Below, piece by piece: positions 1,345-19,949 of a stretch of DNA of 19,949 bases (position 1 is the stretch's first letter; every line of letters begins with the position of its first letter). Source of the stretch: Hormoscilla sp. (lineage in GTDB: Bacteria > Cyanobacteriota > Cyanobacteriia > Cyanobacteriales > Desertifilaceae); the NCBI GenBank assembly GCA_051439505.1, contig JBFRWI010000121.1:1-19949 (forward strand), in the 5' to 3' direction. A program made the translations under genes and the position numbers. The notes below the pieces were generated by a model. The model ran no database searches. It was not told the DNA's origin and worked only from the letters and a program-made list of their open reading frames with translations.

Positions 1345-3606
1345 CTATCGCCGCCGAACGTGATACGTGGGAAAGGTGCCATAACCCTTAGCTAAAGGAG
1401 TTTGTCCCACATAATCGCAAGCAAATTCCCGCACTCTTTCCGAAGAGGCGATCGCGGCAAATTCCCGACTAGCGTAAACCTTGCCGGGAGGGGCGATCGG
1501 TTCTATGCGGGCCGCGTGACTCACGTGGGTACCACCATAGCCGATCTTTCCAGTTAGAGGATTAGAGTATCGGTACACCGGTCCCGCGTGCAAACCAATG
1601 CGCAAATTAAACTCTGGGGGCAATCCTACCTTAGCCCAATCGGTATTGCTGACGAAATCGCACAACTCCAAGGCAAACAAACCCGCATCCCGGACGCTGG
1701 GAAAAACATAATATAAAGCATCTCCCCAGGTATTCTTCGCCACGGATTGATAGTCAGATTTCGCCTCTAACTCCGCTACGCCACCGAAGAAATAGCGCAC
1801 GAAGGCGGCTATTTGATTTTCTTTTAATTTAGAATAGCCCTTCACATCCCCAAACAACAGGGCCATTATTAAACGTTCTCCGGACTCTGGGGCTACGCTA
1901 TCCATAGGTTGCTGTTCCAGATTGTTTGCAGTTGCCCCGATCGCACCACTTGAGAGTAACAAAGATTCCAGATCGATAATTTCAATCCCATCGTGCCACT
2001 GCTGCCAATATTCTACAGCGGTTGCCGTACCGCCTGCACCCCCTGGTTTGCCGTTCCAGACCGCCAGAGGTAGCAGTTCCGTATCTAAATGTTCCGATCG
2101 CATTTTCGCCAAACCGTAAAGCACGCGATTTGTGTATTCGTAGATGGCGCTGCTTTTCTGTCCTAGATTATAATGATCGGGAACGATCGTCTCCGTGGCC
2201 CGTTCCATAAGGCGATCGAACCGTTGCCGCCAATTGCCATCGGGGATAATATCAACGGATTCTTTGATAAACTGTTCCCGTTCGTAGGGGAGAACGATGT
2301 GAAGTTCGCCTCCCAGTTCGGCGAGGGCTTCCAGAAACAAAATATCGCTGCCACAAGCAGCAGAAGCGTAACCCAAACGGGCATCCAGTTTTATCAGGCG
2401 ATCGCGGATAGCTTCGTAAACCCGGGACTCCAGTTCGGCAGGAAACCTGGGAGTCTGGCGAGCGGGTGTATCGATCATATGACCGCTAAACACCGCCACC
2501 AGAGGAATTTGAAACCATTTTTTAATTAAATCTAAATCCCCATCAATGTGCTGTAAAATCGCCATAGCATTGCGGCGAGTCGAGCTAATTTTCCCAAACT
2601 GTCCCCGGGCCAGTTCCACAGCTTGAGAATAGCAATCTTCTGCCGCCGGGCGATCGCCCATTATCAAAGCCGCCTCTCCCAAAGTTGCCAGCAACCAATA
2701 TTCGCTGCTACTAAGTTTTCCAGAAGGTAATTCTTGCAAGCATTTCTGGCGCACCTCAGAGGCAATAATTTTAGCATCCTCTGGTTTTCCCTGCAACAAA
2801 GTCATCGTCGCCGCATTAATACCCGGGTAATAGCTGCCATTTTGATGATAAGCTTGTGTGTAACGTTGGGCAGCCAAAGCTAAATGGCGGTTGGCTGTGG
2901 CGCGATCGCTTGCCTGCTGCCAGAGGTCTTTTTCAGTGCGGGCCAAAAGACTAACAGTTTCCTCATCGGACTGTCCCGACTCCACCAACTGCAACAGCAT
3001 GGCATTTGCCCGATGGGTAGCCCCGCTGCGTGCCAAGGCCAAAGCCGTCAATTGTTGCAAAGGCATGTCTAGGGGCCAACTTCGCAACCCTTCTGCTAAA
3101 ATATCGTAAGCCATCAAAGGTTCCCCCAAGCTGAGGATCGAGTCCCCCAAAACTCGGTAAATATCCGGCATCGCCGGTTTAATATTAATAGTTTCCCGGC
3201 GAATTTGTTGCAAGCTGGATAAATTCAATTGGGATGAATTTTGCAGACTTGCCAGTATCAGGGACAAATTACTATTATCTACCGCTGCTGTCGGTTCTCC
3301 TCCTGTAGCTTCCAGTTGATATCCCAAAGCTAACAAAGTTTTGATGACACCCACGGAGATCACGCGATCGTATTCTTTTTCCGACTCCGGCAAATCTTCG
3401 TAAGGCACCAAACCCGGATGTTCTTTTTTAGCATCGTCCCGTTGGGGCCCGTATTTCCACCCTTCAGCCAAGCGCTGAACTGCCCAAAGATCGTGAGTAT
3501 TTTTGGCAAGCAACTCCGTGATTTGTAAATGTTCCGTCCCGAGAGTAACTCCCTCAGTGTCTATAGGTTGAGGTTCGTAATTCAAGGTTGTATTCTCCTT
3601 TGACAA
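1345..3606 (-). CDS. Multidomain class III nucleotide cyclase: RyR domain + TPR-sensor/DUF4071-like (MAP3K TRAF-binding-like) + SLOG-like domain + adenylate/guanylate cyclase domain
   Basis: RyR motif (YEPQPID...LAKNTHDLW...GWKYG...HPGLVPYEDLPESEKEYDR); TPR-S/DUF4071-like motifs (SLLARTEKDLW, YYPGINAAT, YWLLATLGEA); SLOG-like motifs (VFSGHMID, ACGSDILFLE, AVWNG...GGT); cyclase motifs (LLFGDVKGYS, TWGD, LRIGLHAGPV, AARIEP). TTG start. Confidence 0.88.
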   Translation of the reverse strand: MSKENTTLNYEPQPIDTEGVTLGTEHLQITELLAKNTHDLWAVQRLAEGWKYGPQRDDAKKEHPGLVPYEDLPESEKEYDRVISVGVIKTLLALGYQLEATGGEPTAAVDNSNLSLILASLQNSSQLNLSSLQQIRRETINIKPAMPDIYRVLGDSILSLGEPLMAYDILAEGLRSWPLDMPLQQLTALALARSGATHRANAMLLQLVESGQSDEETVSLLARTEKDLWQQASDRATANRHLALAAQRYTQAYHQNGSYYPGINAATMTLLQGKPEDAKIIASEVRQKCLQELPSGKLSSSEYWLLATLGEAALIMGDRPAAEDCYSQAVELARGQFGKISSTRRNAMAILQHIDGDLDLIKKWFQIPLVAVFSGHMIDTPARQTPRFPAELESRVYEAIRDRLIKLDARLGYASAACGSDILFLEALAELGGELHIVLPYEREQFIKESVDIIPDGNWRQRFDRLMERATETIVPDHYNLGQKSSAIYEYTNRVLYGLAKMRSEHLDTELLPLAVWNGKPGGAGGTATAVEYWQQWHDGIEIIDLESLLLSSGAIGATANNLEQQPMDSVAPESGERLIMALLFGDVKGYSKLKENQIAAFVRYFFGGVAELEAKSDYQSVAKNTWGDALYYVFPSVRDAGLFALELCDFVSNTDWAKVGLPPEFNLRIGLHAGPVYRYSNPLTGKIGYGGTHVSHAARIEPIAPPGKVYASREFAAIASSERVREFACDYVGQTPLAKGYGTFPTYHVRRR

Positions 3607-3819: not shown

Positions 3820-4512
3820 TTAAATTTTTCGGCCTTCAGCTAAAACCTGTAGCTGTTCTCTGTTTAACAAGGTAATTCGAGAACCATTAATGTCAATTAT
3901 ACCCGACTGACTCAGTTTAGCAAAAACTCTGGATAGAGTCTCGGGAATTGTGCCTAACAAAGCTGCTAGTTGACTCTTCGTCATATCTAATTTTATCTCA
4001 TCGCCGTCTGCCCGATCGCCCAAAAACAAGAGATAGGCGGCGAGTCTGCCGGGGACTTCCTTGAAAGAAAGATCCTCAATAAGCTGGGCAAAGCGACGCA
4101 GGTGTCGGGAAAAAATTGCTAGCATATTGATGGCGATCGCGGGGTATTGTTCTAGCAAATGCAAAAAAGAAGTGCGGGGAAAGAACAAGAGTTTAGTTTG
4201 ATCCAAGGCAGCAGCATAAGCAGGAAAGCATTGACCGTCAAAAGCGGCCACTTCAGCAAAATGTTCGCAAGGACCAAACAGGTGTAAAATCTGTTCCTTG
4301 CCCTCAACAGAGAGTTTGAAGACCTTGACCCTGCCCGATCTAACGACGAAAAAGCCCGTACCCCGATCGCCTTGGGCAAAGATCATCTCGCCTTTAGCAT
4401 AGGTACGGGCGATCGAGATGTTCGCCAAAGCATCCAACTGGTCTGGCGGCAGGCCCTGCCAGAGTTGGATACCGGCCATAAATTCTCTCAATTCTCCTAA
4501 TTGATGATTCAT
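3820..4512 (-). CDS. Crp/Fnr-family transcriptional regulator (HcpR/Dnr-like)
   Basis: cNMP-type beta-barrel (IFAQGD...FFVVRSGRVKVFK...GKEQIL) and C-terminal HTH (TKSQLAALLGTIPETLSRVF). Divergent from hcp. Start placed at ATG 4512 (MNHQ) because the longer ORF-track start lies within a repeat element. Confidence 0.92.
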   Translation of the reverse strand: MNHQLGELREFMAGIQLWQGLPPDQLDALANISIARTYAKGEMIFAQGDRGTGFFVVRSGRVKVFKLSVEGKEQILHLFGPCEHFAEVAAFDGQCFPAYAAALDQTKLLFFPRTSFLHLLEQYPAIAINMLAIFSRHLRRFAQLIEDLSFKEVPGRLAAYLLFLGDRADGDEIKLDMTKSQLAALLGTIPETLSRVFAKLSQSGIIDINGSRITLLNREQLQVLAEGRKI

Positions 4513-4555
4513 ATACTTTAAAAGGGATCGACTTGAGAAGAATGGAGAAGAACGT

Positions 4556-4727
4556 GTCATTGCGAGGGGGGGGCGCCTCATCTGTAACGGTGGTAAGCAA
4601 AACTATCAGACCCCCCCGAAGCAATCTCCTGCCCAGCACTCGGGAGATTGCTTCGGGGGGTGTTACTCTTAAATTACAAGGATATCGTTATTTAGCTCCC
4701 CCCACGCTGCGCGAAAAATCGCAATGA
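4556..4727. repeat. Nested palindromic interspersed element (GTCATTGCGA...GAAGCAATC / GATTGCTTC...TCGCAATGA type)
   Basis: Outer arms TCATTGCGA (4557) and TCGCAATGA (4719-4727). Inner perfect stem CCCCCCGAAGCAATCTCC / GGAGATTGCTTCGGGGGG spanning 4612-4660. Confidence 0.75.
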
Positions 4728-4790
4728 GATATTGGCTGCATTCCATCAGGGCAGTTCCTGACCTTAGCAGTATAGCTGAATTGGGAAAAA

Positions 4791-4804
4791 TTGATCTAAG
4801 TCAA
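4791..4804. promoter_or_regulatory. FNR/Dnr/HcpR-type binding box upstream of hcp
   Basis: TTGAT-CTAA-GTCAA, one mismatch from TTGAT-N4-ATCAA. TAAAGT at 4827-4832 sits at the spacing expected for a class II (-41.5) promoter. Confidence 0.75.
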
Positions 4805-4865
4805 GGAAATAAGTACGATGCTGTCATAAAGTAGGGAAAGAACTCAAGAGAAGGAGACGAAAAGC

Positions 4866-6515
4866 ATGTTTTGCGAACAATGCGAACAAACGGCCAGCGG
4901 ACAAGGATGCCATCAATGGGGAGCCTGCGGTAAAAGCCCGGAAGTGAATGCAGTCCAAGATTTGTTAGTATATTGCCTGCGGGGCATAGCGCCAGTGGCA
5001 CTCAAGGCCCGGGAGTTGGGCATACCGACCCAGGAAGTCGATCGCTTTACCTGTGAGGCCCTGTTTGCCACCATGACCAATGTCAACTTTCACAAACAGC
5101 GGTTTGCAGACTACATCCGCCGGGCGATCGCCCACCGGGAAAACCTGAAAGGCCAAATAAGTCAAGCTACAGACAATAATATAGAATGGTCTGGCCTGTC
5201 ATGCTTTGAACCAGACTACAGTGAAAGCTTAGTCGCACAAGGTATAGAAGTGGCCTTGGATGCGATCGCCCGATCGGGCAGCAACGCGGACATATTCTCC
5301 CTGAAACTGACCGTCCTTTATGGGGTCAAAGGTCTAGCATCCTACAGCTTCCACGCCCAAGAACTAGGTCAAGAGGACGAAAAAGTTTATGCCTTTTGTC
5401 AGGAAGCATTAGTAGCAATCGATCGGCAAGACTTGAGTCTGGAGGACTGGGTAAACCTGGCCTTAAAAGTAGGGGAAATGAACCTGCGGGCAATGGAACT
5501 CTTGGATGCGGGTCACACCAGCAGTTACGGTCATCCCGTTCCGACCCCAGTACCCCTGAATGCCAAACAAGGTAAGGCAATCTTAGTGTCCGGTCACGAT
5601 ATCAAGCAACTGGAAGCATTGCTGAAACAAACCGCAAACAAGGGCATCACAGTCTACACCCACGGTGAACTGCTACCTGCCCACGGTTACCCCCTATTAA
5701 AACAGAAATACCCTCATCTTTACGGTCACTACGGCACCGCTTGGCAAAACCAGACCCGAGATTTTGCCAAATTCCCCGGTGCGATCGTCATCACCACCAA
5801 CTGTCTGATGCCACCCCACGATAATTACGAAGAGAAACTGTTCAATATCGGGCCAGTGGGATATCCAGGCATCACCCATCTTCCCGACGGGGACGCGGAT
5901 ATTCCCGACTTCACCCCCGTCATCCAAAAGGCATTAGCAATGCCAGGTTTCCCAGAAGATGGCCAACCGCGCCAAGTGACCACGGGTTTTGCCCGCAATG
6001 CGGTCCTGAATGTGGCAGATAAAGTCATCGAAGCAGTCAAAAAAGGAGAAATTCGTCACTTCTTCCTGGTGGGGGGCTGCGACGGGGCAAAACCCGATCG
6101 CAACTACTATACTGAATTTGTGGAAAAAGTCCCCGAAGACTGCGTGGTCCTGACCCTCGCCTGCGGGAAATTCCGCTTTTTCGACCAGCAACTGGGAGAA
6201 ATAGGCAGCATTCCCCGGTTAATGGATGTCGGTCAATGTAATGATGCCTACTCAGCGATTCAAATAGCCCTGGGTTTGGCGAATGCCTTTAATATGGACG
6301 TGAATGAATTGCCTTTGTCCATGATTCTTTCCTGGTACGAGCAAAAAGCAGTCGCCGTGCTGTTAACATTACTTTACCTGGGAATTAAGGACATCCGCTT
6401 GGGACCGACACTGCCCGCCTTTATCACTCCCAATGTATTTAATTTCCTCTCCCAGAATTACAATTTACAGGCGATCGGGACTCCCGATGAAGATTTAGCA
6501 GCTTGTCTCGGTTAG
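4866..6515 (+). CDS. hcp: Hybrid cluster protein (hydroxylamine/NO reductase), class I-type
   Basis: N-terminal MFCEQCEQT...GC...GACGK (C-X2-C-X8-C-X5-C); motifs SGHD, YTHGE, TTNC, VGGCDG, TLACGK, GQCNDAYS, SWYEQKA; 549 aa; AGGAG RBS upstream. Confidence 0.98.
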   Translation: MFCEQCEQTASGQGCHQWGACGKSPEVNAVQDLLVYCLRGIAPVALKARELGIPTQEVDRFTCEALFATMTNVNFHKQRFADYIRRAIAHRENLKGQISQATDNNIEWSGLSCFEPDYSESLVAQGIEVALDAIARSGSNADIFSLKLTVLYGVKGLASYSFHAQELGQEDEKVYAFCQEALVAIDRQDLSLEDWVNLALKVGEMNLRAMELLDAGHTSSYGHPVPTPVPLNAKQGKAILVSGHDIKQLEALLKQTANKGITVYTHGELLPAHGYPLLKQKYPHLYGHYGTAWQNQTRDFAKFPGAIVITTNCLMPPHDNYEEKLFNIGPVGYPGITHLPDGDADIPDFTPVIQKALAMPGFPEDGQPRQVTTGFARNAVLNVADKVIEAVKKGEIRHFFLVGGCDGAKPDRNYYTEFVEKVPEDCVVLTLACGKFRFFDQQLGEIGSIPRLMDVGQCNDAYSAIQIALGLANAFNMDVNELPLSMILSWYEQKAVAVLLTLLYLGIKDIRLGPTLPAFITPNVFNFLSQNYNLQAIGTPDEDLAACLG

Positions 6516-8297: not shown

Positions 8298-10430
8298 ATG
8301 TGTAGAGCCAAATCCATCTCGAATCTGGAGAATAGCCAGCTGACGATCGCGCCCACCGATACTGGCAACGGCAGTTCGTCAAAGGCAGCAGCGGCCATGG
8401 TAGCAGGGCCCTCACCCAATGGATCGGCTTCGTGGCAGTTCGGGCGATCGAGGCGCCTATTGATGGCAGCGATATCCCCCGATACCTTTACCATCGCCTC
8501 TGGGAACGACGCTTTTTGCCATCTAGTTGGTAAATCTGTAGCAGAGTCCCAGTTGTGGGATCTGTTGTCAGAAAAGGACCAATCTCTATTCCAACAACTG
8601 TATGAGCGTCACATTTGGCATCAAGTCAGAAAACAACAGGTCGAACAAAAGGGGCAGGATCTAGAGAACCCCCAGGATGAGGAAGATTCAGTAGTAGTAT
8701 CTCTGTCAAGTCCTCTGTATCCAGAACCGCGCTTTGTCCAATTATGGATCGACTGCGACGATCTGAAAATTACCCCCATCAACCCCGAAAGCGAACTGGG
8801 GCTGGAAAATTACCGCGTAGAAGGAAAGCTGCTATTAGAAGGGATAGACGTAACCGCATCGGAGAAAATTCGCCAGTTGCTCGACCAGTTAATTGACCGA
8901 GATGCCCTAGTAAATCCCCCAAAATTTCAGCAGATTAACCAACAGTTGCGATCGCTGTTTCGGGCCAGTAACATGTTGATTATCAGGGCCGAGAGTAGCC
9001 AAGCCCAACTGTCCTTCGGCACGGATTATCACAGCTTAAATCGCACGGTTTATAACATCGAATGTCTGCAAGATTCTCACTTTTTCCGGGCGGCCAAAGC
9101 GGCACAAGTATGTAATGTCCCCGATTTGAGCCAGGATTGTCAAACCGATTGCGAGCGATCGCTCCTAGATCTGGGAGTGCGTTCTTTATTGTTAATTCCC
9201 CTGGACATCTTAGCAGTTGACCAAGGCCCAGAGAGTCATCAAATGCTAGGATTGGTAGGACTGACGAGCGATCGGCCCCATAATTTTACAACCTTTGACT
9301 GCCACAGAGCTGCCGAATTAATCCCGGCCTTAACCTGTGCCCTGCGTCAGGCATCTGGGCAACAATTCACCCACATTCATCCTGCCGTAGCCTGGCGTTT
9401 TTTGCAAGAAGCGGAACGGAGAAGCTGGGGGTTGCCTCCAGAACCCATTGTCTTCACCAATGTCTACCCCTTGTATGGCATCTCCGACATTCGCGGCTCT
9501 TCCAAGGAGCGCAACCGGGCCATCCAAGCAGATTTAATCGCCCAGTTTCGCCTCGGTTTAGCAGTCGTTGAAGCTGTGTGCCAATGCCAAGAAAGCTCCT
9601 TAGCCGAGCAACTCAAGTTGGACTTACTCAATTATATCAAAAGCTTAGAAGAAAAAGTCACAGTCGATGCCGAAGTCACGGCAATTGAGTATCTCAGAGG
9701 ACATCTCGAACTCTACTTTGATTACTTTCGCGCCTGTTCGGAAGCGGCCAGATCGGCTGTAGACCGCTACCAAGAGAGTTGCGACAATGATAACCAATGC
9801 ATTTACCAGGCAAGGCGTCAATATGACCGGATGATTAAAGCCATTGATGCCCAACTGCAACAGACTTGGGAAAGCTGGCAAGAGCGGATGCAGAAAATCA
9901 TCCCCCATTACTGCGACATCGAACTTACAGATGGCATGGATCATATGATCTACACCGGAAAATCCATCAACTCCGCTTTCAGCAAATTCCATCTCCACAG
10001 TCTCCGTTACGAGCAGTTGCGTACTGTTTGCGACTGCGCGCGCACGGCATTTAGAATACAAGGGCAATACGAGACCCAATTGCAACTTACACATTTAGTG
10101 TTAGTGCAGAATGTGACCGTGGATATTTTCCATGACGAAAAAACAGAAAAACTCTTTGATGTTCAAGGAACCCGCGATATCCGCTATGAAATCATCAAAA
10201 AGCGGATTGACAAAGCTGTAGATGCCAATACCCGCGATCGCATTACCCAACCAGGCATGTTAACCATAGTCTACTCCACCGATGAAGAGTGGGAAGAATA
10301 CCAACAATACATGCATTATCTGGAACGGGAAAAATGGATTGCTCCAGGAATAGAATCAGGGCCCGTAGAGCCATTACAAGGAGTTGAAGGTCTCAAGTTT
10401 GCCCGCGTCCGCGTTTTACCAGAATCATGA
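8298..10430 (+). CDS. PAS-like/GAF domain protein with a C-terminal region resembling a divergent class III cyclase
   Basis: PAS-like start (GNDAFCHLVG); GAF motifs (NVPDL...LGVRSLLLIPL...LGLVGL.S..P.NF); C-terminal motifs LYGISDIRGSS, TDGMDH, FDVQG, KKRIDK, QPG, LQGV. The gene and GAF calls are firm; the cyclase resemblance is inference. Confidence 0.85.
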   Translation: MCRAKSISNLENSQLTIAPTDTGNGSSSKAAAAMVAGPSPNGSASWQFGRSRRLLMAAISPDTFTIASGNDAFCHLVGKSVAESQLWDLLSEKDQSLFQQLYERHIWHQVRKQQVEQKGQDLENPQDEEDSVVVSLSSPLYPEPRFVQLWIDCDDLKITPINPESELGLENYRVEGKLLLEGIDVTASEKIRQLLDQLIDRDALVNPPKFQQINQQLRSLFRASNMLIIRAESSQAQLSFGTDYHSLNRTVYNIECLQDSHFFRAAKAAQVCNVPDLSQDCQTDCERSLLDLGVRSLLLIPLDILAVDQGPESHQMLGLVGLTSDRPHNFTTFDCHRAAELIPALTCALRQASGQQFTHIHPAVAWRFLQEAERRSWGLPPEPIVFTNVYPLYGISDIRGSSKERNRAIQADLIAQFRLGLAVVEAVCQCQESSLAEQLKLDLLNYIKSLEEKVTVDAEVTAIEYLRGHLELYFDYFRACSEAARSAVDRYQESCDNDNQCIYQARRQYDRMIKAIDAQLQQTWESWQERMQKIIPHYCDIELTDGMDHMIYTGKSINSAFSKFHLHSLRYEQLRTVCDCARTAFRIQGQYETQLQLTHLVLVQNVTVDIFHDEKTEKLFDVQGTRDIRYEIIKKRIDKAVDANTRDRITQPGMLTIVYSTDEEWEEYQQYMHYLEREKWIAPGIESGPVEPLQGVEGLKFARVRVLPES

Positions 10431-10702: not shown

Positions 10703-10805
10703 TAAGCTGTCGCGCATTGAAATTGCACAGGCCGAAACGCCGAAACCCCTGTCGTCAATTGCTTTCCAAATTTTGAATTCTGAATTTTGAATTTTGAATT
10801 GCTTA
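10703..10805. repeat. Heptamer tandem repeat (AATTTTG)n within a possible MITE-like remnant
   Basis: AATTTTG AATTCTG AATTTTG AATTTTG at 10769-10796. The segment begins TAAGC (10703) and ends GCTTA (10805), a 5-bp inverted terminus. Confidence 0.55.
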
Positions 10806-10961
10806 TGAGGGGGTTCCCGGAGTGAGGCGGAAAGTCAAGCTCAATCATCACTATTTTGCGGATAATGGGTCAGACCCCCCAGTCAATTACCCCAGAGTAT
10901 CTTAAAATAACGTTGCACCAGGCAATTTGTAACAATGGTGATTCAAGGGAGATAATAGATA

Positions 10962-12725
10962 GTGAATTTACCCCAGAAAATGCGTTCGGAATTTAGTTGG
11001 GATGAGGCGATATTTCTCGCCCAACTCTCTAAAGAAGTCTATGAAGTATTTCAGCAGAAAAAGAATCTCGAAGGCACGGAACTACTGGAACTCTATAACC
11101 TGCTTTATCCCAAAGAGGATTGGGCTCTCGTTCACATTATTAGCAATAACGATACCAATATCCGAGGCTTAAATTTCAAGCACCAGAGTTACCATCAGTA
11201 TGCTGTGGTTTTCCGAGGTTCCATTTTGACAGAGAATGGCCTATTAGAACTGACTGATATGGCCACAGATGTTCAGTGGGATTTGGTGAAATATGGGGCC
11301 ACAAGTTCTCAGAAAATCCGCGCTGTCCAAGGTTTTTTATCTGCTTATGAGTCCGTAGCAGATCAAATTAATATCTTTTTCAAAACCTTGACTGGGCAAC
11401 TTGAAACAGAAGACTTTCAGGAACTCAAACAGCTAAACATTGAACGGCGCTTAGCTTCCGTAGGGGCGATCGCCGATGCGGGAGCAGTCCGGTTAGGGGC
11501 GAGTTTTGGCCAGCAAGTTCGAGAATCGATTTTCCAGGGATTAAAAAATCAGGGAATTTCTAGCAACAATGGAGTGCAATCGACTCTCGACTTAGAACAG
11601 TCTTTGATTGAGTTAGGACCAGTCACCGATCGCCTGGAAGTTTATGTCACGGGACATAGTTTAGGGGGCTGTTTGGCAAACTTTTGTGCTTTATCCTTAA
11701 AGCAGCAAATCAAAAACGATCGTTTACACCCCAAAGTCTATACCTTTGGCACGCCTAAGGTGGGAAATCAGTTTTTTGCAGATTATTACGATGGAGAAAT
11801 TGGCAAGGGTTTTAGCTATCGGATCGAGAACAGTTTAGATCCCGCTCCCCATATTCCCCTCCCTTTACCCTTCCCCCTCAATCTGATTGCGGGCAGCGGC
11901 ATCCGCGTGGGAGAATTCTATTTGGGGGATTATGCAGGGGTTGGCGAGCTTCATACTGTAACGGGTTTAGGGTCTCAAGGGGTCTCTGTCAATTTTGGTG
12001 GGGCCCTGGAGTTTTTAGGAGGGATTCCTTTTCCCCATAGCTTTGATACCTATATTCAACTGCTGGAGCAGCAACAACAACTTTGGACAGATTTGCTGCG
12101 TCCCGTCAGAAGTATTATGGCAGATTTAATCGGTCAGCTTTTACAAGGGCAAAACACTGAAATTACCGATAATTTACAACAGGAAATTAAAGGAATTCAA
12201 GCGTCCGTGGATGAGATGATCAACCAAATCCAAGTTTGGCAACATCCCTCCCTAGAAGTCCTACCCCAAATCGATAGTCAGGAAATTCTCGGTGTAGCTT
12301 TACCTAGGCTCAAACCAGATCTGGTGGCCAAGTTGGCCCCCAAAGTACAGATTTTGACCTATGCTCCAGGATCTGCGATCGTGCGTCAGGGAGAGCAAGC
12401 CCATCGATTTTACATTATTGCCCGGGGACAAGTTGAGGTGATCCTCGACAATCCCAACGGTGAATCTCGCCTGCTTCGAGAAATGGGTCCGGGAGAATAT
12501 TTTGGTGAAATTGGTCTGTTATCTGGGGGCATTCGCACTGCCACCGTGCGGGCAAAAAACTCCGAAGAAGTCCAAGTTTTGGCCCTGGATGGAGAAACCT
12601 TTAGGATGATGATTTCTGAGTCTGAAGTCACTGCCATGCAACTAGCCTATAGGCTGGCGACACGGGCAATGACCGGGTCAAGCTCGACTGCGTTGACGGT
12701 GTTTTCACATGATATCCAGAGCTAA
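10962..12725 (+). CDS. Lipase class 3 family protein fused to a C-terminal cyclic-nucleotide-binding domain
   Basis: Lipase motifs AVVFRGS, VTGHSLGG (nucleophile Ser), YTFGTPKVGN, DPAPHIP (Asp) and PHSFDTY (His). CNB motifs IVRQGE...FYIIARGQVEV...GEYFGEIGLLSGGIRTATVRA. GTG start with a GGAG RBS. Confidence 0.9.
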   Translation: MNLPQKMRSEFSWDEAIFLAQLSKEVYEVFQQKKNLEGTELLELYNLLYPKEDWALVHIISNNDTNIRGLNFKHQSYHQYAVVFRGSILTENGLLELTDMATDVQWDLVKYGATSSQKIRAVQGFLSAYESVADQINIFFKTLTGQLETEDFQELKQLNIERRLASVGAIADAGAVRLGASFGQQVRESIFQGLKNQGISSNNGVQSTLDLEQSLIELGPVTDRLEVYVTGHSLGGCLANFCALSLKQQIKNDRLHPKVYTFGTPKVGNQFFADYYDGEIGKGFSYRIENSLDPAPHIPLPLPFPLNLIAGSGIRVGEFYLGDYAGVGELHTVTGLGSQGVSVNFGGALEFLGGIPFPHSFDTYIQLLEQQQQLWTDLLRPVRSIMADLIGQLLQGQNTEITDNLQQEIKGIQASVDEMINQIQVWQHPSLEVLPQIDSQEILGVALPRLKPDLVAKLAPKVQILTYAPGSAIVRQGEQAHRFYIIARGQVEVILDNPNGESRLLREMGPGEYFGEIGLLSGGIRTATVRAKNSEEVQVLALDGETFRMMISESEVTAMQLAYRLATRAMTGSSSTALTVFSHDIQS

Positions 12726-14062: not shown

Positions 14063-14443
14063 CTAGGCCATAACTTCACTGGCCAGCTGGCGGCAAGCCT
14101 TTAGTCCCAGATTCGGATTTTGGCGATATTCGGCCTCTGGCTGCCAAACCGTAACAGTGTAATCTGAAGCGATCGAGTAGAGGTAATCTACATCTGGATG
14201 ATAATGGATGCCCACCCGCAAGTTAGAAAAATCGTCCTCACATATTTCAAAGCCAAAGCGGACGACAACTTGAGCTAGCAAGCACTCCGGTGTATCGCAG
14301 TATTCACCAGCGGTTTCTCGTTCTTCGCCAAATATCTCTAGAAATTTGTTAAGTCGAGGCAGAACCTTGGCAGGGATGCCGTTTCTACTAGCGTACAAGA
14401 TCGCGGGATTGCCTTCGACGATGATGTGACAAGGTGTAGCCAT
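14063..14443 (-). CDS. Hypothetical protein
   Basis: Open frame co-oriented with its neighbours (MATPCHIIVEGNPAILYASRNG...FSNLRVG..YHPDVDYLY). ATG 14443 is preferred over TTG 14461. Confidence 0.75.
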   Translation of the reverse strand: MATPCHIIVEGNPAILYASRNGIPAKVLPRLNKFLEIFGEERETAGEYCDTPECLLAQVVVRFGFEICEDDFSNLRVGIHYHPDVDYLYSIASDYTVTVWQPEAEYRQNPNLGLKACRQLASEVMA

Positions 14444-14511
14444 TGCTTGACTGCTGGACAATATTTGACTTCCTGTTTCGATTTTAATGCGGCAACATAA
14501 AAATCGTCTCG

Positions 14512-14919
14512 TTATTTGCCCACAGCATTACAACCCACGGGGTAAGGGGATTTATAGGTGCTTTCCCGCTTGCCGAATAAGGCGTAACGGTTGTCCCGCA
14601 CTTGGGCGTACAGGCGATCGCCCGTCCATTTCAGCCCCGGCAGGGCGCGATATGCCTTGACAAAAACTTCCCCATATGGTATTATATAGCCTATCTCTTC
14701 TGCTGCATCGCTACCTTGCCAACGTCGATCGGGCATTTTCGCATCTATTAAAATCATTCCCATTTGACAATCATTCTGCGTGACATTGAACTGCTTGAGG
14801 GTATCTTCATCCTGCATGGGGATGTAATCAAACTGTTGACCGCGATCTAACTTTTTCAGCAGCTGCACCAGGGTGACGCAGAGATTACAATTGCCATCGT
14901 AAATCACGTGATAATCCAT
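14512..14919 (-). CDS. DCC-family thiol-disulfide oxidoreductase (DUF393)
   Basis: MDYHVIYDGNCNLC (DxxCxxC) and NRYALFG. The ATG at 14919 has an AAGGAG RBS. Confidence 0.92.
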   Translation of the reverse strand: MDYHVIYDGNCNLCVTLVQLLKKLDRGQQFDYIPMQDEDTLKQFNVTQNDCQMGMILIDAKMPDRRWQGSDAAEEIGYIIPYGEVFVKAYRALPGLKWTGDRLYAQVRDNRYALFGKRESTYKSPYPVGCNAVGK

Positions 14920-15284
14920 AATTTTTATCTCCTTATTTGATCGTAAAAAATTATCTAAATATACAAAAGCAACATAAAAAAGGCTGAAACCCTTGATTTT
15001 GTGTAGCGATCGGGAAAACTGATAACCCAAAACTCAGGATCCCCCATAATTTATGCTATAATATTATGTATCGTTCATCATTTACCTTGCTTGTACCGGT
15101 CCGAGCCCGATCGCCCCTTCATGAATCCCCTGTAGGATAACTGAGTAGCGCACTCGCGGCCCAGTAACGACCACCGGTAGCTGATCGCTCGACAGATCAT
15201 CTTTCCTTTTTCTTGACTTTTCACTCCTATACATAGTAGGCGATCGCAATTAAGCTCAAGGTGATATTTTTTTGTTAAACCCCA

Positions 15285-16372: not shown

Positions 16373-18112
16373 ATGAAAAAGAATACCTATGCGACATTGA
16401 TAGATATATTAAGGGACAGAGCGATCGGGCAATCCAACCAGAAAGCTTATACATTTCTCAAAAATGGGGAAGCTGAATCAGACAGCCTGACTTATCATGA
16501 ACTGGATCTTAAGGCAAGGGCGATCGCAGCCCAGCTCCAATCTTGGCAAGGGGAACGGGCTTTACTCTTGTATCCTCCAGGGTTAGACTTTATTTGTGCA
16601 TTTTTTGGCTGTTTATATGCTGGGGTAATCGCTGTTCCTGCTTATCCACCTCGCCGCAATCAAAAATTATCTCGTTTGCTTTCTGTTGCTGAAGATGCTC
16701 AAGCGGCGATCGCCTTAACCAACACATCGGTATTGAACGGGATCCAATCTCAGGGGACAGAAAATCAAGAATTAGCTAAATTAAATTGGATAGCAACGGA
16801 TAAAATAGATCTGGTTTCTGTGGACTGGACACCCAAACGGATAAAACCAGAACAATTAGCCTTTTTGCAATATACTTCCGGTTCAACTGGAATACCCAAG
16901 GGGGTAATGATTAGCCACAGTAACCTGATGCACAACTTGGCGATAATTTATCAGTGCTTTGGGCATAGTGATAATAGTAAAGGGATAATATGGTTACCTC
17001 CTTATCATGATATGGGGTTAATTGGTGGCGTTCTACAGCCTATTTATGGGGGATTTCCCGTGGTACTGATGCCATCAGTATATTTTCTCCAAAAACCGAT
17101 TCGATGGTTACAGGCAATTTCCCGATATCGAGCAACCACCAGTGGGGGACCGAATTTTGCTTATGACCTTTGCCTTCGCAAGGTTAAGCCAGACCAGTTG
17201 GCAAGTCTAGACTTGAGTAGTTGGGAAGTGGCTTTTACGGGAGCAGAACCTATCCGTGCTGAGACACTAGAGCAGTTTGCAGCTAAATTTAAGTCCTGTG
17301 GCTTCCAAAAAGAGGCATTATACCCCTGCTATGGGATGGCAGAAGCTACATTATTTGTATCTGGGGGATTGAAAACAGAGCCACCCATTATCTGTTCAGT
17401 GGAAGAGATGGCACTACAAGAAAACCAGGTAATACCTCTCTGGAGGGATGTGACAGGCAGCCGTAAGGTTGTATGCTGTGGTCATGCATGGTTAGATGAA
17501 AAAATTGCCATTGTTAATCCCGAATCCTTAACCGAGTGTCCCTCTAACCAAGTTGGAGAGATTTGGGTATCGAGTTCAAGTGTCGCTCAAGGTTATTGGC
17601 GAAAACCAGAGGAAACAGAACAAACGTTTCATGCCTACATAGCAGATACGGTCGAGGGTCCATTTCTGCGGACTGGAGATTTGGGATTTGTCCTAGATGG
17701 GGAGTTATTTGTCACGGGTCGCCTCAAAGATGTTATGATTATCAGAGGTCGCAATCATTATCCCCAAGATATTGAATTGACCGTGGCTCGGAGTCATCAG
17801 GCACTCAAACCAAATTGCGGATCTGCTATATTAATAGAGGTGAAGGGTGAAGAGCGACTGGTCATTGTTCAGGAAGTGGAGCGGAGTTACCTGCGAAAGT
17901 TAGACACAGAGGAGGTGGTCAGACATATTCGTAGAGCAGTAGCATCCGAACACGAACTCCAGGTTCATGCTGTAGCTTTGCTCAAACCGGGGAGTATACC
18001 TAAAACTTCCAGTGGCAAGATTCAGCGTTACCGTTGTCGAGAAAATTTTCTCAATGGAACTTTGGATGTGTTAAATTCAGCAGAATATGAGAAAGAGCTA
18101 TGTCGATGTTAG
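16373..18112 (+). CDS. Fatty acyl-AMP ligase (FAAL)
   Basis: LAFLQYTSGSTGIPKGV, WLPPYHDMGLIG, SGGPNFAY, YGMAEATL, FLRTGDLG, GRNHYPQDIE, IPKTSSGKIQR; followed directly by an ACP gene. Confidence 0.95.
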   Translation: MKKNTYATLIDILRDRAIGQSNQKAYTFLKNGEAESDSLTYHELDLKARAIAAQLQSWQGERALLLYPPGLDFICAFFGCLYAGVIAVPAYPPRRNQKLSRLLSVAEDAQAAIALTNTSVLNGIQSQGTENQELAKLNWIATDKIDLVSVDWTPKRIKPEQLAFLQYTSGSTGIPKGVMISHSNLMHNLAIIYQCFGHSDNSKGIIWLPPYHDMGLIGGVLQPIYGGFPVVLMPSVYFLQKPIRWLQAISRYRATTSGGPNFAYDLCLRKVKPDQLASLDLSSWEVAFTGAEPIRAETLEQFAAKFKSCGFQKEALYPCYGMAEATLFVSGGLKTEPPIICSVEEMALQENQVIPLWRDVTGSRKVVCCGHAWLDEKIAIVNPESLTECPSNQVGEIWVSSSSVAQGYWRKPEETEQTFHAYIADTVEGPFLRTGDLGFVLDGELFVTGRLKDVMIIRGRNHYPQDIELTVARSHQALKPNCGSAILIEVKGEERLVIVQEVERSYLRKLDTEEVVRHIRRAVASEHELQVHAVALLKPGSIPKTSSGKIQRYRCRENFLNGTLDVLNSAEYEKELCRC

Positions 18113-18167
18113 ATAGTAAAACAGCAATGCTATCGTAACCACAAAAATTATCGAGGATTTGAAAACA

Positions 18168-18506
18168 ATGGAAACTAAAAATCTTGAAGTTCCCCATATG
18201 CCAACAGATTTAGTACCTAACACTGATAATGGTCACGTAGCTGCTCCGAAATCTCCTCCAAGTGTAACAGAAATTAAAGCTTGGTTAGTCTCCTATGTGG
18301 CGGAAATGCTAGAAATTGAACCATCGGAGGTCGATATTAGCTTGGAGTTTAATGACTATGGTCTGGATTCGAGTGCAGCTGTTGGAATTACGGGGGACTT
18401 AGAGGAATGGTTAGAGCGCGAACTAGATCCTACCCTTCTTTATGATTACCCAACTATTGAATCTCTAGGGCAGCATTTAGCCTCCGAACTAAAAATAGAG
18501 GCTTAA
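18168..18506 (+). CDS. Stand-alone acyl carrier protein
   Basis: IKAWLVSYVAE...DYGLDSSAAV (phosphopantetheine Ser)...PTLLYDYPTIESL. ATG 18168 is chosen; TTG 18159 is possible. Confidence 0.93.
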   Translation: METKNLEVPHMPTDLVPNTDNGHVAAPKSPPSVTEIKAWLVSYVAEMLEIEPSEVDISLEFNDYGLDSSAAVGITGDLEEWLERELDPTLLYDYPTIESLGQHLASELKIEA

Positions 18507-18572
18507 ATGGCATTGATTTGTAGCCTTGATTGAGTCGAAAAAAAATGTTAATTAAAATCACAGGAAAAGACG

Positions 18573-19949
18573 ATGGTAGATACTATCTCAACTCAAAACA
18601 TAAACGGTAAAACTTCAAACCAAGGAAAAACGCCGAAGCATTTGACCTTAATTGAAAGAACATTTCAGAGTAATGTTAAGTCTGACTATACCGAGAAAAT
18701 AGAGGCTCTGGGTAGAAACTTTAAATATGAGGTAGAGCGCGATGTTTATTGGGGCGACCCAGAACTGTCTGTGCTATACGGTACCCCCATTTACCAAGCT
18801 GCCTCACCTGCGCAAAAAATTGCGCTCAATCATCTGTTCTGGGTTTCGCAGTACAATAATACAGCTGCTACCGAAGCGGCAACGATCTTTTACAACCAAG
18901 TCACAAAAGGCGTTTTTCTAAAAGTTGGCGTTTACGAAACCCTCTGCGGCGAATTGGAAATCGAAACAGATCAAGAACGCTACCACATTAAAACATTTCA
19001 AAAGGTTGGTTACAAGACTAAACAGGCGCTGTTGGGCAAAGCCATATTAAAAAATTCCATCCAGGGAAAATGGTACAAATCGCAGCAACAGGGCGAGGGC
19101 CGAGGAAATATTTTGGCCTCCTTAGAGGAGAAGTTACCCTTCTCCCTTGACTGGGACAAAACCTGGCGCTGGACAGTAGAAAAAATGCTCCCTCAGCACA
19201 AAAACTGTCGTTCAACCTATTTGGAGGAATTAGTGCAGAGAAATGAGCCAATTCCTGGATATGCAGACGGGCTAGCAGGACGATTAGCTCCTAGTCGGTA
19301 TATGCGGCAGTTCTTTACCTATAATTGGGGAAGTTCGCCATTCTTGGCTTCTCAATACTATACCTTGCGCTACATTGCTAATTTGGCTCTCAAAAGTAAG
19401 GAACATTCCTATTTCAAGTATTTTAAAAACTTAGACAAGAGATCTGAGTTTATTCCCACCCCCACAGCGATTTCCCACTTCCATTTGTTAGATGAATCGT
19501 TTCATACCACGATTTCCCAGACAATTGGTCACGACTTATACAAAGACTTTGCCCCGCCAACAGCCTATGAAAAATTTGTAGCAAATATGGCGGTCTACAT
19601 GATGCAACGTAACGTTTTGAACGGAATTTCTTGTATATTACCCAGTGAGCCATTGTTAGACGATCCGCTGATTATGTTGTTGTGCTACAAAATACTGCGA
19701 TCGCAGATATTCGGAATGTCTTCAGAGGAAGCGCTCCATTGTATGCAGCAAAGTTTGTGTCAAGAAAATGAGGCATTTCACGTCAGCCTCAAGTACCACC
19801 AACGCCTGCTGTCCGATATTCGCCGGTTTGTTCATGATATTGACTACCTCTGGCCAGTCAACCGAGAAATGCGCCTGATGAACTCAGGGGCTAATATCGA
19901 TCGGGCGATCCAAGCAAATATCAAAACCTTTAAGCAATTTGCTCAGTCC
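18573..19949 (+). CDS. CylC-like dimetal-carboxylate halogenase (ferritin/AurF-like fold), 3' end beyond the window
   Basis: Manual translation gives 459 open codons: MVDTIST...YWGDPELSVLYGTPIYQAASPAQKIALNHLFWVSQYNNTAATEA...ETDQERYH...NWGSSPFLA...HFHLLDESFHTT...EAFH...YLWPVNREM. ExxxExxH and HxxDExxH metal motifs are present, and the gene order is FAAL-ACP-halogenase. Not in the ORF track because no stop lies in the window. Confidence 0.9.
   Translation, partial: MVDTISTQNINGKTSNQGKTPKHLTLIERTFQSNVKSDYTEKIEALGRNFKYEVERDVYWGDPELSVLYGTPIYQAASPAQKIALNHLFWVSQYNNTAATEAATIFYNQVTKGVFLKVGVYETLCGELEIETDQERYHIKTFQKVGYKTKQALLGKAILKNSIQGKWYKSQQQGEGRGNILASLEEKLPFSLDWDKTWRWTVEKMLPQHKNCRSTYLEELVQRNEPIPGYADGLAGRLAPSRYMRQFFTYNWGSSPFLASQYYTLRYIANLALKSKEHSYFKYFKNLDKRSEFIPTPTAISHFHLLDESFHTTISQTIGHDLYKDFAPPTAYEKFVANMAVYMMQRNVLNGISCILPSEPLLDDPLIMLLCYKILRSQIFGMSSEEALHCMQQSLCQENEAFHVSLKYHQRLLSDIRRFVHDIDYLWPVNREMRLMNSGANIDRAIQANIKTFKQFAQS

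Follow-up and report, generated by a model that had tools for sequence, protein, structure and literature searches.

A divergent class III cyclase-like fold predicted in the C-terminal half of a PAS-GAF protein from the cyanobacterium Hormoscilla sp.

Introduction

Class III nucleotidyl cyclases share a canonical set of residues: two aspartates, two base residues, an Asn and Arg, and a phosphate-binding Arg and Lys (PMC6592433, PMC7384201). A Lys/Asp pair at the base positions is of the ATP type (PMC6592433), while the guanylyl type is marked by a Glu four residues before the second Asp, as with Glu497 and Asp501 in CaGC (PMC7384201). Counts of cyclases per genome rest on the PF00211 profile, for example in Table 1 of PMC4284465. 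Cryptic class III-like proteins have also been described, namely the DUF2652 proteins, which were recognized through remote homology, were not assayed for activity and in some cases carry Ile in place of the Asn (PMC4886424). Here we analyze a 19,949-nucleotide stretch of Hormoscilla sp. (assembly GCA_051439505.1, contig JBFRWI010000121.1; hereafter the window) and, within it, a gene for a 710-residue GAF protein whose C-terminal half had been suggested, from the sequence alone, to hide a divergent class III cyclase fold.

Results

The C-terminal half matches class III cyclases in predicted structure

An AlphaFold2 model of residues 355–710, built from a 96-row alignment, is of high confidence (predicted local distance difference test, pLDDT, 93.5; predicted template modeling score, pTM, 0.87) and is predicted to have the class III catalytic fold. 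In a Foldseek search of this model against the PDB, the matches listed are all class III cyclases, nine of them at E ≤ 0.001, with Cya2 as the best (E 1e-4). A VIA structure comparison over 48,161 chains gives the same result, with class III cyclases at all of ranks 1–22 (Z 9.3–12.0) and nearly the whole domain covered. The top rows are Cya2 (Z 12.0, root-mean-square deviation (rmsd) 2.9 Å, 183 of 201 residues), CyaB (11.9), CyaC (11.5) and the uridylate cyclase 8jsz (11.2). Outside the cyclases, the highest-scoring row is a helical bundle aligned to an insert within the domain (Z 9.2), and Cmr2, which has a related palm fold, appears at rank 34 (Z 7.7). GGDEF chains are absent from the 50 best VIA matches listed, and neither a GG[DE]EF nor a GGDD motif occurs in the 710-residue sequence. 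The class III match recurs with a full-length model (144 rows, pLDDT 87.5). Although identity is 8–14% in most of the structural alignments, these observations make homology of the C-terminal half to class III cyclases almost certain. VIA rows within one Z unit are tied, and adenylyl and guanylyl cyclases therefore cannot be told apart from rank.

The motifs that had led to the original prediction all lie in the expected order within the open reading frame (ORF): LYGISDIRGSS at residues 392–402 (D397), IELTDGMDHMIYTG at 541–554 (D545), THLVLVQ at 598–604, FDVQG at 620–624, KKRIDK at 634–639, TQPGMLTIVYS at 650–660 and LQGVEG at 693–698. A relaxed version of this ordered pattern, written after seeing the data, is found in 5 of the 2370 stop-free frames of at least 300 residues in the genome, namely this protein and four true cyclases; it is weak support because it catches only four of the genome's 20 PF00211 matches.

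The expectation that profile hidden Markov models miss the domain was borne out. PF00211 gives no match at E ≤ 1 to the full protein or to the C-terminal domain, and the protein is absent from the genome's 20 PF00211 matches. Searches of Pfam, NCBIfam, PADLOC and PHROGs with the C-terminal half found no cyclase or other relevant match, DUF2652 does not match the protein, and sequence searches of the PDB, with the single sequence or a profile, returned GAF matches only. In Atlas, the C-terminal half leads to 'hypothetical' clusters only (0.91 and 0.84) and the PAS region has no match. One entry of a newer Pfam release, PF27174 'YeeD', falls on 34 of 120 non-cyanobacterial homologues, on none of 120 close homologues and, in the two Atlas clusters that lie closest to residues 381–710, on roughly one member in three; it thus overlaps the family in some homologues, the comparison being by entry label alone.

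Two aspartates and a basic residue set are retained across the family

We compared 384 aligned rows, comprising the query, 240 hits that two homologue searches gave, a single plasmid protein and a further 142 representatives at 50% identity, which together reach down to 31% identity. The two putative metal-binding aspartates, D397 and D545, are retained in every row. Only six residues are invariant throughout (D397, D412, D545, G546, Y552 and G624), and in the first 242 rows just 3 of the 22 Asp of the domain were invariant. R405, K634, R636, K639 and R648 are each found in 383 rows. Invariant or nearly invariant residues without a counterpart in ordinary cyclases are D412, E459, Q532, Y552, R570, Q573, E631 and R648. 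The best covarying pair between β1 and β3, 394:549 (rank 34–49 of 61,776; 393:550 ranks 488–767), sets D397 opposite G546. This register agrees with the canonical two-Asp geometry, the predicted secondary structure is also in keeping with the places of the two aspartates, and both residues would be suited to bind metal.

The spacing from D397 to D545 is 146–153 residues, and exactly 148 in 368 of the 384 rows, against 42–45 in 18 class III cyclases of the same genome (18 of its 20 PF00211 matches, leaving out two that run off the end of a contig). This amounts to a net insert of about 104 residues. The length of about 140 first given for it was too long because the native α1, α2 and β2 had been counted in. 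The insert is the least conserved segment of the domain (0.49 vs 0.66–0.76), and within it D412 is invariant and E459 is present in 381 rows. β1, β3 and β4 each appear about two residues longer than in the genome's own cyclases, and α4 about four to five residues longer.

The cyanobacterial clade has a different base pocket

We further note that the base positions divide the family in two. We define a clade of 122 rows by at least 50% identity to the query; it is set by identity, and those of its members that bear names are cyanobacteria. Position 541, four residues before D545, is K or R in 237 of the 262 rows outside the clade and in none within it, where it is I, V, L or T and an acid is fixed at 542 (122/122; I541 and E542 in the query). 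K/R541 occurs together with D/E621 in 193 of the 262. Clade members keep D/E621 (122/122) and carry R or K at 623 (109/122) and at 626 (122/122), and 24 positions are differently conserved between the two groups. The non-standard specificity residues noted at the outset are therefore a property of the cyanobacterial clade, while most of the other relatives keep the ordinary pair.

The non-cyanobacterial pattern also identifies the base slot. F-E-K-Y-K-T-D-G in these relatives corresponds to L-D/E-K-Y/F-I-G-D-A in the class III cyclases of the Hormoscilla genome, and F-D-V-x-G to Y-D/T-x-x-G. Because of this E-K-Y pattern, 541 and not D540 is the base slot. D540 had been considered as a guanylyl-type Glu from a secondary-structure string and was rejected, an acid five residues before the Asp being usual (D or E in 11 of 18 own cyclases). 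An adenylyl-type protein would have Lys four before the second Asp and Asp, Thr or Ser three before the β5 Gly, and here these positions are I541 and D621; the guanylyl-type Glu is likewise not at 541, the clade acid sitting one place off, at 542. Since the base-slot pattern of neither type is complete here and the lid Lys of known cyclases is replaced, we treat this as a divergent family of class III fold, outside PF00211 and outside the adenylyl and guanylyl cyclases.

Other cyclases of this genome vary at the same slot. Two ordinary class III cyclases (G000 C165:6938-7474 and C165:2841-3377) have Glu at base slot 1 and are candidate guanylyl cyclases. A 753-residue protein in the window (1345-3606, minus strand) combines RyR and TPR-S/MAP3K TRAF-binding domains with a divergent class III cyclase domain, which is just over the PF00211 cut-off and has Asn at base slot 1.

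A homodimer is predicted in which the insert contacts the partner's lid

A two-copy prediction with ATP and Mg included scores 0.54, against 0.00 for the best of three controls. This passes a threshold that was attained for 20 of the 30 solved pairs and for 1 of the 23 single chains, counts that hold only roughly because ATP and Mg were included and the protein's own alignment was used. The runs share at least 78% of contacts at a pLDDT of at least 85. The most confident contacts are those of S402 with Q694' and V696', and of insert residues 453–461 with 694–699 and 660–661 of the partner. The lid Lys in a GTP complex of known structure extends from one subunit to the phosphates bound by the loop of its partner (PMC7384201), an arrangement that the predicted S402–Q694' contact would fit. 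Covarying pairs 399:693 (rank 43–46) and 464:663 (rank 38–55) agree with the predicted contacts and could arise within or between chains. The passing score may itself reflect likeness to solved cyclase dimers.

Predicted PAS, GAF and transducer segments precede the cyclase-like domain

The predicted domain order and the coordinates of its elements are given in Table 1. The PAS domain, which Pfam does not detect, matches KinA PAS-A (Z 11.1, rmsd 2.0, 90 of 93 aligned) and BMAL1 PAS-B (Z 11.2). Near position 8790 (residues 160–170) about 25–35 residues present in most homologues are missing from it, and a close relative has 27 extra bases there. Pfam finds the GAF domain alone in the whole protein, at E 0.016 and below the cut-off. 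In the GAF domain C281, C285 and H261 are present in 71, 76 and 79 of 85 cyanobacterial rows and are not among the common residues of 59 other rows; they form a possible metal, haem or redox site.

The IHPAVAWRF helix is a likely cyclase transducer element because cyclase chains that carry a pre-catalytic helix align with the model from its residue 1–7. We take 'cyclase transducer element' to be the accepted name for such a helix. The same term is used in PMC7384201. H361 and F368 of this helix occur in 383 of 384 rows, and the distance from the ILPxxI-type motif to the first Asp is 29–35 residues in the genome's own cyclases vs 37 here. The end of the GAF domain lies 12, 15 or 17 residues from IHPAVAWRF in the 85 cyanobacterial rows and 23 in the 59 others, spacings that would agree with a phased signalling helix.

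Table 1. Elements of the cyclase-like gene, in window coordinates.
Element	Position	Strand	Remarks
Whole gene	8298-10430	+	710 residues; predicted PAS-GAF-transducer helix-class III cyclase-like domain
Disordered N-terminus, residues 1-45	8298-8432	+	pLDDT <50
Predicted PAS domain, residues 51-185	8448-8852	+	KinA PAS-A and BMAL1 PAS-B structural matches
GAF domain, residues 186-357	8853-9368	+	Z 14.4, rmsd 2.9, 156 aligned to 3trc
CxxxC pair C281/C285 in GAF, with H261	9138-9152	+	Specific to the cyanobacterial clade
IHPAVAWRF helix, residues 358-376	9369-9425	+	Likely cyclase transducer element
Cyclase core, first part: β1 with D397 (9486-9488), phosphate loop G400-S401-S402, α1 with R405	9447-9524	+	
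Helical insert, net ~104 residues, ~410-513, edges approximate	9525-9836	+	D412 and E459 conserved
Cyclase core, second part, residues 514-706	9837-10415	+	
Base slot 1 I541, clade-specific E542, putative second metal Asp D545 (9930-9932)	9918-9932	+	
FDVQG, β5: base slot 2 D621, invariant G624	10155-10169	+	
α4, longer than canonical; near-invariant E631, K634, K635, R636, D638, K639	10173-10214	+	Putative transition-state residue region
β7-β8 lid LQGVEGL	10374-10394	+	Gln at the usual phosphate-binding Lys; predicted contact with partner α1 (S402) and insert

The family is widespread and its cyanobacterial members are patchy

Two homologue searches returned 3495 and 7119 hits at 90% clustering, and a whole-protein profile collects 981 clusters at 50% identity (E ≤ 1e-30). 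Hits that bear names come from cyanobacteria, Bacteroidota, Spirochaetota, Desulfobacterales, Fusobacteriota, Rokuibacteriota and Entotheonella, and the close relatives among them are cyanobacteria. A FastTree phylogeny of 193 representatives groups the nine clade members as a monophyletic set (support 1.0), and the stem leading to them measures 1.48, vs 0.53 for the next-longest internal branch. The gene is a single copy in this 6.47-Mb assembly. It is patchy and dispensable: of 301 genomes in the phylum, 21 carry it, almost always as a single copy, and 13 of 31 near relatives have it; of four other genomes of the genus, one holds a fragment only. Two ORFs (451 and 365 residues) stand for the gene in a long-read-only assembly, and a 396-residue ORF in another (loci L081 and L055), through assembly error or a real split. 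Locus L053, titled Actinomycetota, is probably mis-binned: its gene is of cyanobacterial type (66% identity) and the gene order around it resembles that of Microcoleus.

Gene neighbourhoods differ between the groups. Metagenome loci nearest one homologue were sampled as the best 80 of 554 and are called Bacteroidota-like here because that homologue is 55% identical to a Chondrinema protein. An HD-PycTM gene adjoins in 64 of these 80 and is followed in 47 by a metallophosphoesterase of about 1230 residues (for example L121:4112-7795), while a second, of about 300 residues, lies upstream in 15; these metallophosphoesterases are candidate signal-degrading partners. Two annotated plasmid loci have neither HD-PycTM nor metallophosphoesterase. 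The cyanobacterial sample, the best 80 of 293 genome loci and heavily Microcoleus, has ffh (21), PhoH (11), a KH protein (10), a DCC1-like protein (9), a mixed kinase cluster (43) and two small proteins without a match in Pfam, NCBIfam or PHROG (20 and 16) as neighbours, and PycTM is not among them. PycTM is also below cut-off in all 21 cyanobacterial carrier genomes and in 20 non-carriers, and a search of the carriers with the HD-PycTM protein gave short HD-only matches in 4 of 21. The HD-PycTM link does not extend to cyanobacteria.

In the window, one of the small proteins (132 residues, 14063-14461, minus strand) and the DCC1-like protein (14512-15030, minus strand) are present and the other, of 143 residues, is missing; in other cyanobacteria the 132-residue, DCC1-like and 143-residue proteins often stand right behind the cyclase-like gene (16, 9 and 20 of 80 loci). 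Directly downstream of the gene, at 10962-12725 (plus strand), a class 3 lipase is fused to a domain that binds cyclic nucleoside monophosphates (cNMP); its lipase part has a paralogue on C115. We rejected this gene as an effector, and its adjacency looks incidental, because a search with it as the query found no match in 20 other carrier genomes. Between the two genes (~10703-10808) lies a dispersed repeat of about 105 bp, for which BLAST gives up to ~140 overlapping hits across the genome.

We also rejected a role in defence or mobility: the gene has no hits in phage records or viral contigs and is found in two plasmid records only, and BFVD returned weak matches only, ordinary viral cyclases included. 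Two RNA runs match in small shares (0.15 and 0.05), and in one of them a 4.9-kb contig of a close relative spans most of the gene, which is not proof of transcription. Promoter counts (6 vs 3.4 shuffled) and terminator counts (3 vs 3.0) are near shuffle level. Elsewhere in the window, the sequence of 16373-19949 (plus strand) suggests a fatty acyl-AMP ligase together with an acyl carrier protein, and next comes an AurF-like protein whose Pfam match is below cut-off (E 5e-4). This arrangement resembles the opening of a fatty-acid-tailoring gene cluster that includes a CylC-type dimetal enzyme. A Crp/Fnr-type regulator in 3820-6515 is divergent from its neighbour, presumably a hybrid-cluster protein.

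Discussion

We give roughly even chances to the explanation that we prefer, a homodimeric class III cyclase under PAS-GAF control that would convert nucleoside triphosphate (NTP) to 3',5'-cNMP with two metals at D397 and D545, and whose base choice in cyanobacteria is changed or relaxed from adenine. Its parts differ in strength. Some catalytic activity is very likely, and a cNMP product is probable, most of that probability lying with a changed or relaxed base choice. If a single product had to be named it would be cGMP, at low odds. In such an enzyme a small ligand or redox state, perhaps sensed through C281, C285 and H261, would shift the GAF output helix and the IHPAVAWRF helix. The two cyclase domains are predicted to close head-to-tail, α1 S402 meeting the partner lid Q694–L699 and the insert clamping the partner's β7-β8 lid. 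D397, D545 and the G400–S402 loop would then hold metal and triphosphate, with R405, K634/K635/R636, K639 and R648 in place of the lost phosphate-binding residues. The base pocket of the clade lacks K541 and has gained E542, R623 and R626, and may as a consequence accept another base.

Several observations weigh against this explanation. The lid Lys, present in 17 of 18 own cyclases, is replaced at position 694 by Q in 335, P in 26, D in 10 and E in 7 of the 384 rows, with no Lys among the common residues. The β4 phosphate-binding Arg maps, through covariation 396:599, to what is probably residue 596, which is Gln here and mostly E, Q or D in the family. The protein has no N-x-x-x-R, and the candidates D/N627 and K635/R636 sit eight to nine residues apart; placing N/D627 (D in 122/122 clade rows) as the Asn puts E631 at the Arg, while placing R636-I-D on R-L-E puts I632 at the Asn. 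Confident dimer contacts include only T544 from β2-β3 and none from β5. Covariation depth is low (effective number of sequences 208–233) and several top pairs are unexplained. Profile-profile comparison by hhalign with the 18 own cyclases reaches E 0.24 with the insert and 0.04–0.05 without it, and its alignment places G546 against the Gly of 'GD', a shift of two residues from the covariation-backed register. Deleting the insert thus improves detection, in line with the suggestion that it splits the domain and hides it, but the match is still not significant and the core itself is very divergent. Finally, the genome holds 20 ordinary PF00211 matches besides this protein, and no conserved nucleotide-receptor neighbour is found in cyanobacterial carriers.

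The alternative that survives best keeps the fold and the metal site and assigns them other chemistry. An enlarged site, to which the longer strands and α4, the insert and the clustered Lys and Arg residues would contribute, could join two nucleotides into a cyclic or linear product, transfer nucleoside monophosphate to an acceptor or hydrolyze NTP, as might be read from the apparently longer strands and longer α4, the many invariant residues without an ordinary counterpart, the listing of the palm-fold protein Cmr2, and the HD and metallophosphoesterase neighbours of Bacteroidota-like loci. We consider it unlikely: the strong structural matches are all mononucleotide cyclases that score well above Cmr2, the K/D purine pair is kept in most relatives, and PMC11224242 links the PycTM effectors to cyclic mononucleotides.

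It is rather less probable that the cyanobacterial protein is an ordinary adenylyl cyclase in disguise, still making cAMP with R623 or R626 standing in for the lost Lys. The invariant acid at 542, the 24 differing positions and the very long stem look like a functional shift instead, even though the basic residues at 623 and 626 occur exactly where K541 was lost, D/E621 is kept throughout, the wider family is adenylyl-like, and some atypical cyclases, Rv1900c among them, function although they lack the Asn (PMC4886424).

A pseudo-cyclase, which would bind metal and nucleotide and signal by shape change or partner binding without turnover, would explain why the lid Lys and apparently the β4 Arg are replaced, why no Asn and Arg can be mapped and why the clade has lost its base Lys. 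The dimer model, where the insert could cover the cleft, and the lack of a linked receptor gene in cyanobacteria point the same way, as does a class III-like chain titled 'ATP-binding protein' (6yii) among the matches, though this is a clade A PycC in PMC11224242. Against this stand the two Asp, kept in every row with a ring of invariant basic residues, the absence of any other output domain in the protein and, weakly, that of longer fusions among 1429 candidates; we regard a pseudo-cyclase as improbable. That the cyclase likeness is a prediction artefact, or the domain a GGDEF or Cas10-type palm, is hardly credible, since the lack of significant sequence or profile similarity and the modest Foldseek E-values (best 1e-4) are outweighed by two confident models and by three structure searches that rank class III first and cover nearly all of the class III domain, its C-terminal strands and transducer helix included.

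A wider proposal, doubtful at present, is that these proteins form a large unannotated family of class III enzymes under sensor control in bacteria, whose insert clamps the partner lid, and that the cyanobacterial branch left an HD-PycTM circuit, acquired a Cys-based GAF sensor and rewired its pocket to make a messenger new to cyanobacteria, either a cyclic pyrimidine with a housekeeping role or a dinucleotide, cyclic or linear. What is new here is that most non-cyanobacterial relatives keep the Lys/Asp pair, and that the cyanobacterial clade has neither the Lys nor the HD-PycTM neighbour. The two clades thus form a natural experiment, one with an ATP-type Lys/Asp pair and a PycTM-domain neighbour and the other without both. 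Cyclase counts based on PF00211 miss this family and, if it is active, many bacteria hold an uncounted sensor-driven nucleotide signal.

Comparison with known systems

A full-text search found no description of the family, a weak negative given its strict terms and a scope that excluded subscription journals. The DUF2652 proteins are a precedent for a cryptic class III-like family; they are single-domain proteins of about 250 residues, and neither 'GAF' nor 'insert' occurs in PMC4886424.

Pycsar PycC proteins (8jsz, 8jsf, 7r65; Z 9.8–11.2) share a divergent class III fold and altered base residues with this protein, and the PycTM effector of Pycsar has its like in the PycTM-domain gene beside Bacteroidota-like relatives. 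The Hormoscilla protein differs in having no PADLOC match, a PAS-GAF input, no PycTM over cut-off in the carriers, and a single chromosomal copy of its gene, often beside ffh, khpA and phoH.

Sensor-regulated cyclases have the same succession of sensor, helix and cyclase, and the PAS-GAF order is that of phytochrome chromophore modules. The top full-length Foldseek match is 6fht, an artificial phytochrome-cyclase, and 1ykd represents the tandem GAF domains of an adenylyl cyclase from a cyanobacterium. Unlike phytochrome-type sensors, the protein has no PHY domain in the model, and its GAF domain gives no significant profile match to bilin-binding GAFs.

From class III cyclases at large (PF00211; Cya2 2w01, CyaB 3r5g, CyaC 1wc1, mammalian adenylyl cyclase, soluble guanylyl cyclase) the family differs by the ~104-residue helical insert placed between α1 and α2, T-D-G in place of G-D-A, the longer strands and α4, a lid Gln for Lys, no mappable Asn/Arg pair and its escape from PF00211, and the cyanobacterial clade further differs in having neither Lys nor Glu at base slot 1. 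It resembles them in the predicted fold over about 180–210 residues at about 3 Å, an Asp at the end of β1 and another in the β2-β3 turn, a transducer helix in front, a predicted symmetric α1-lid dimer and, in most non-cyanobacterial relatives, the K/D base pair.

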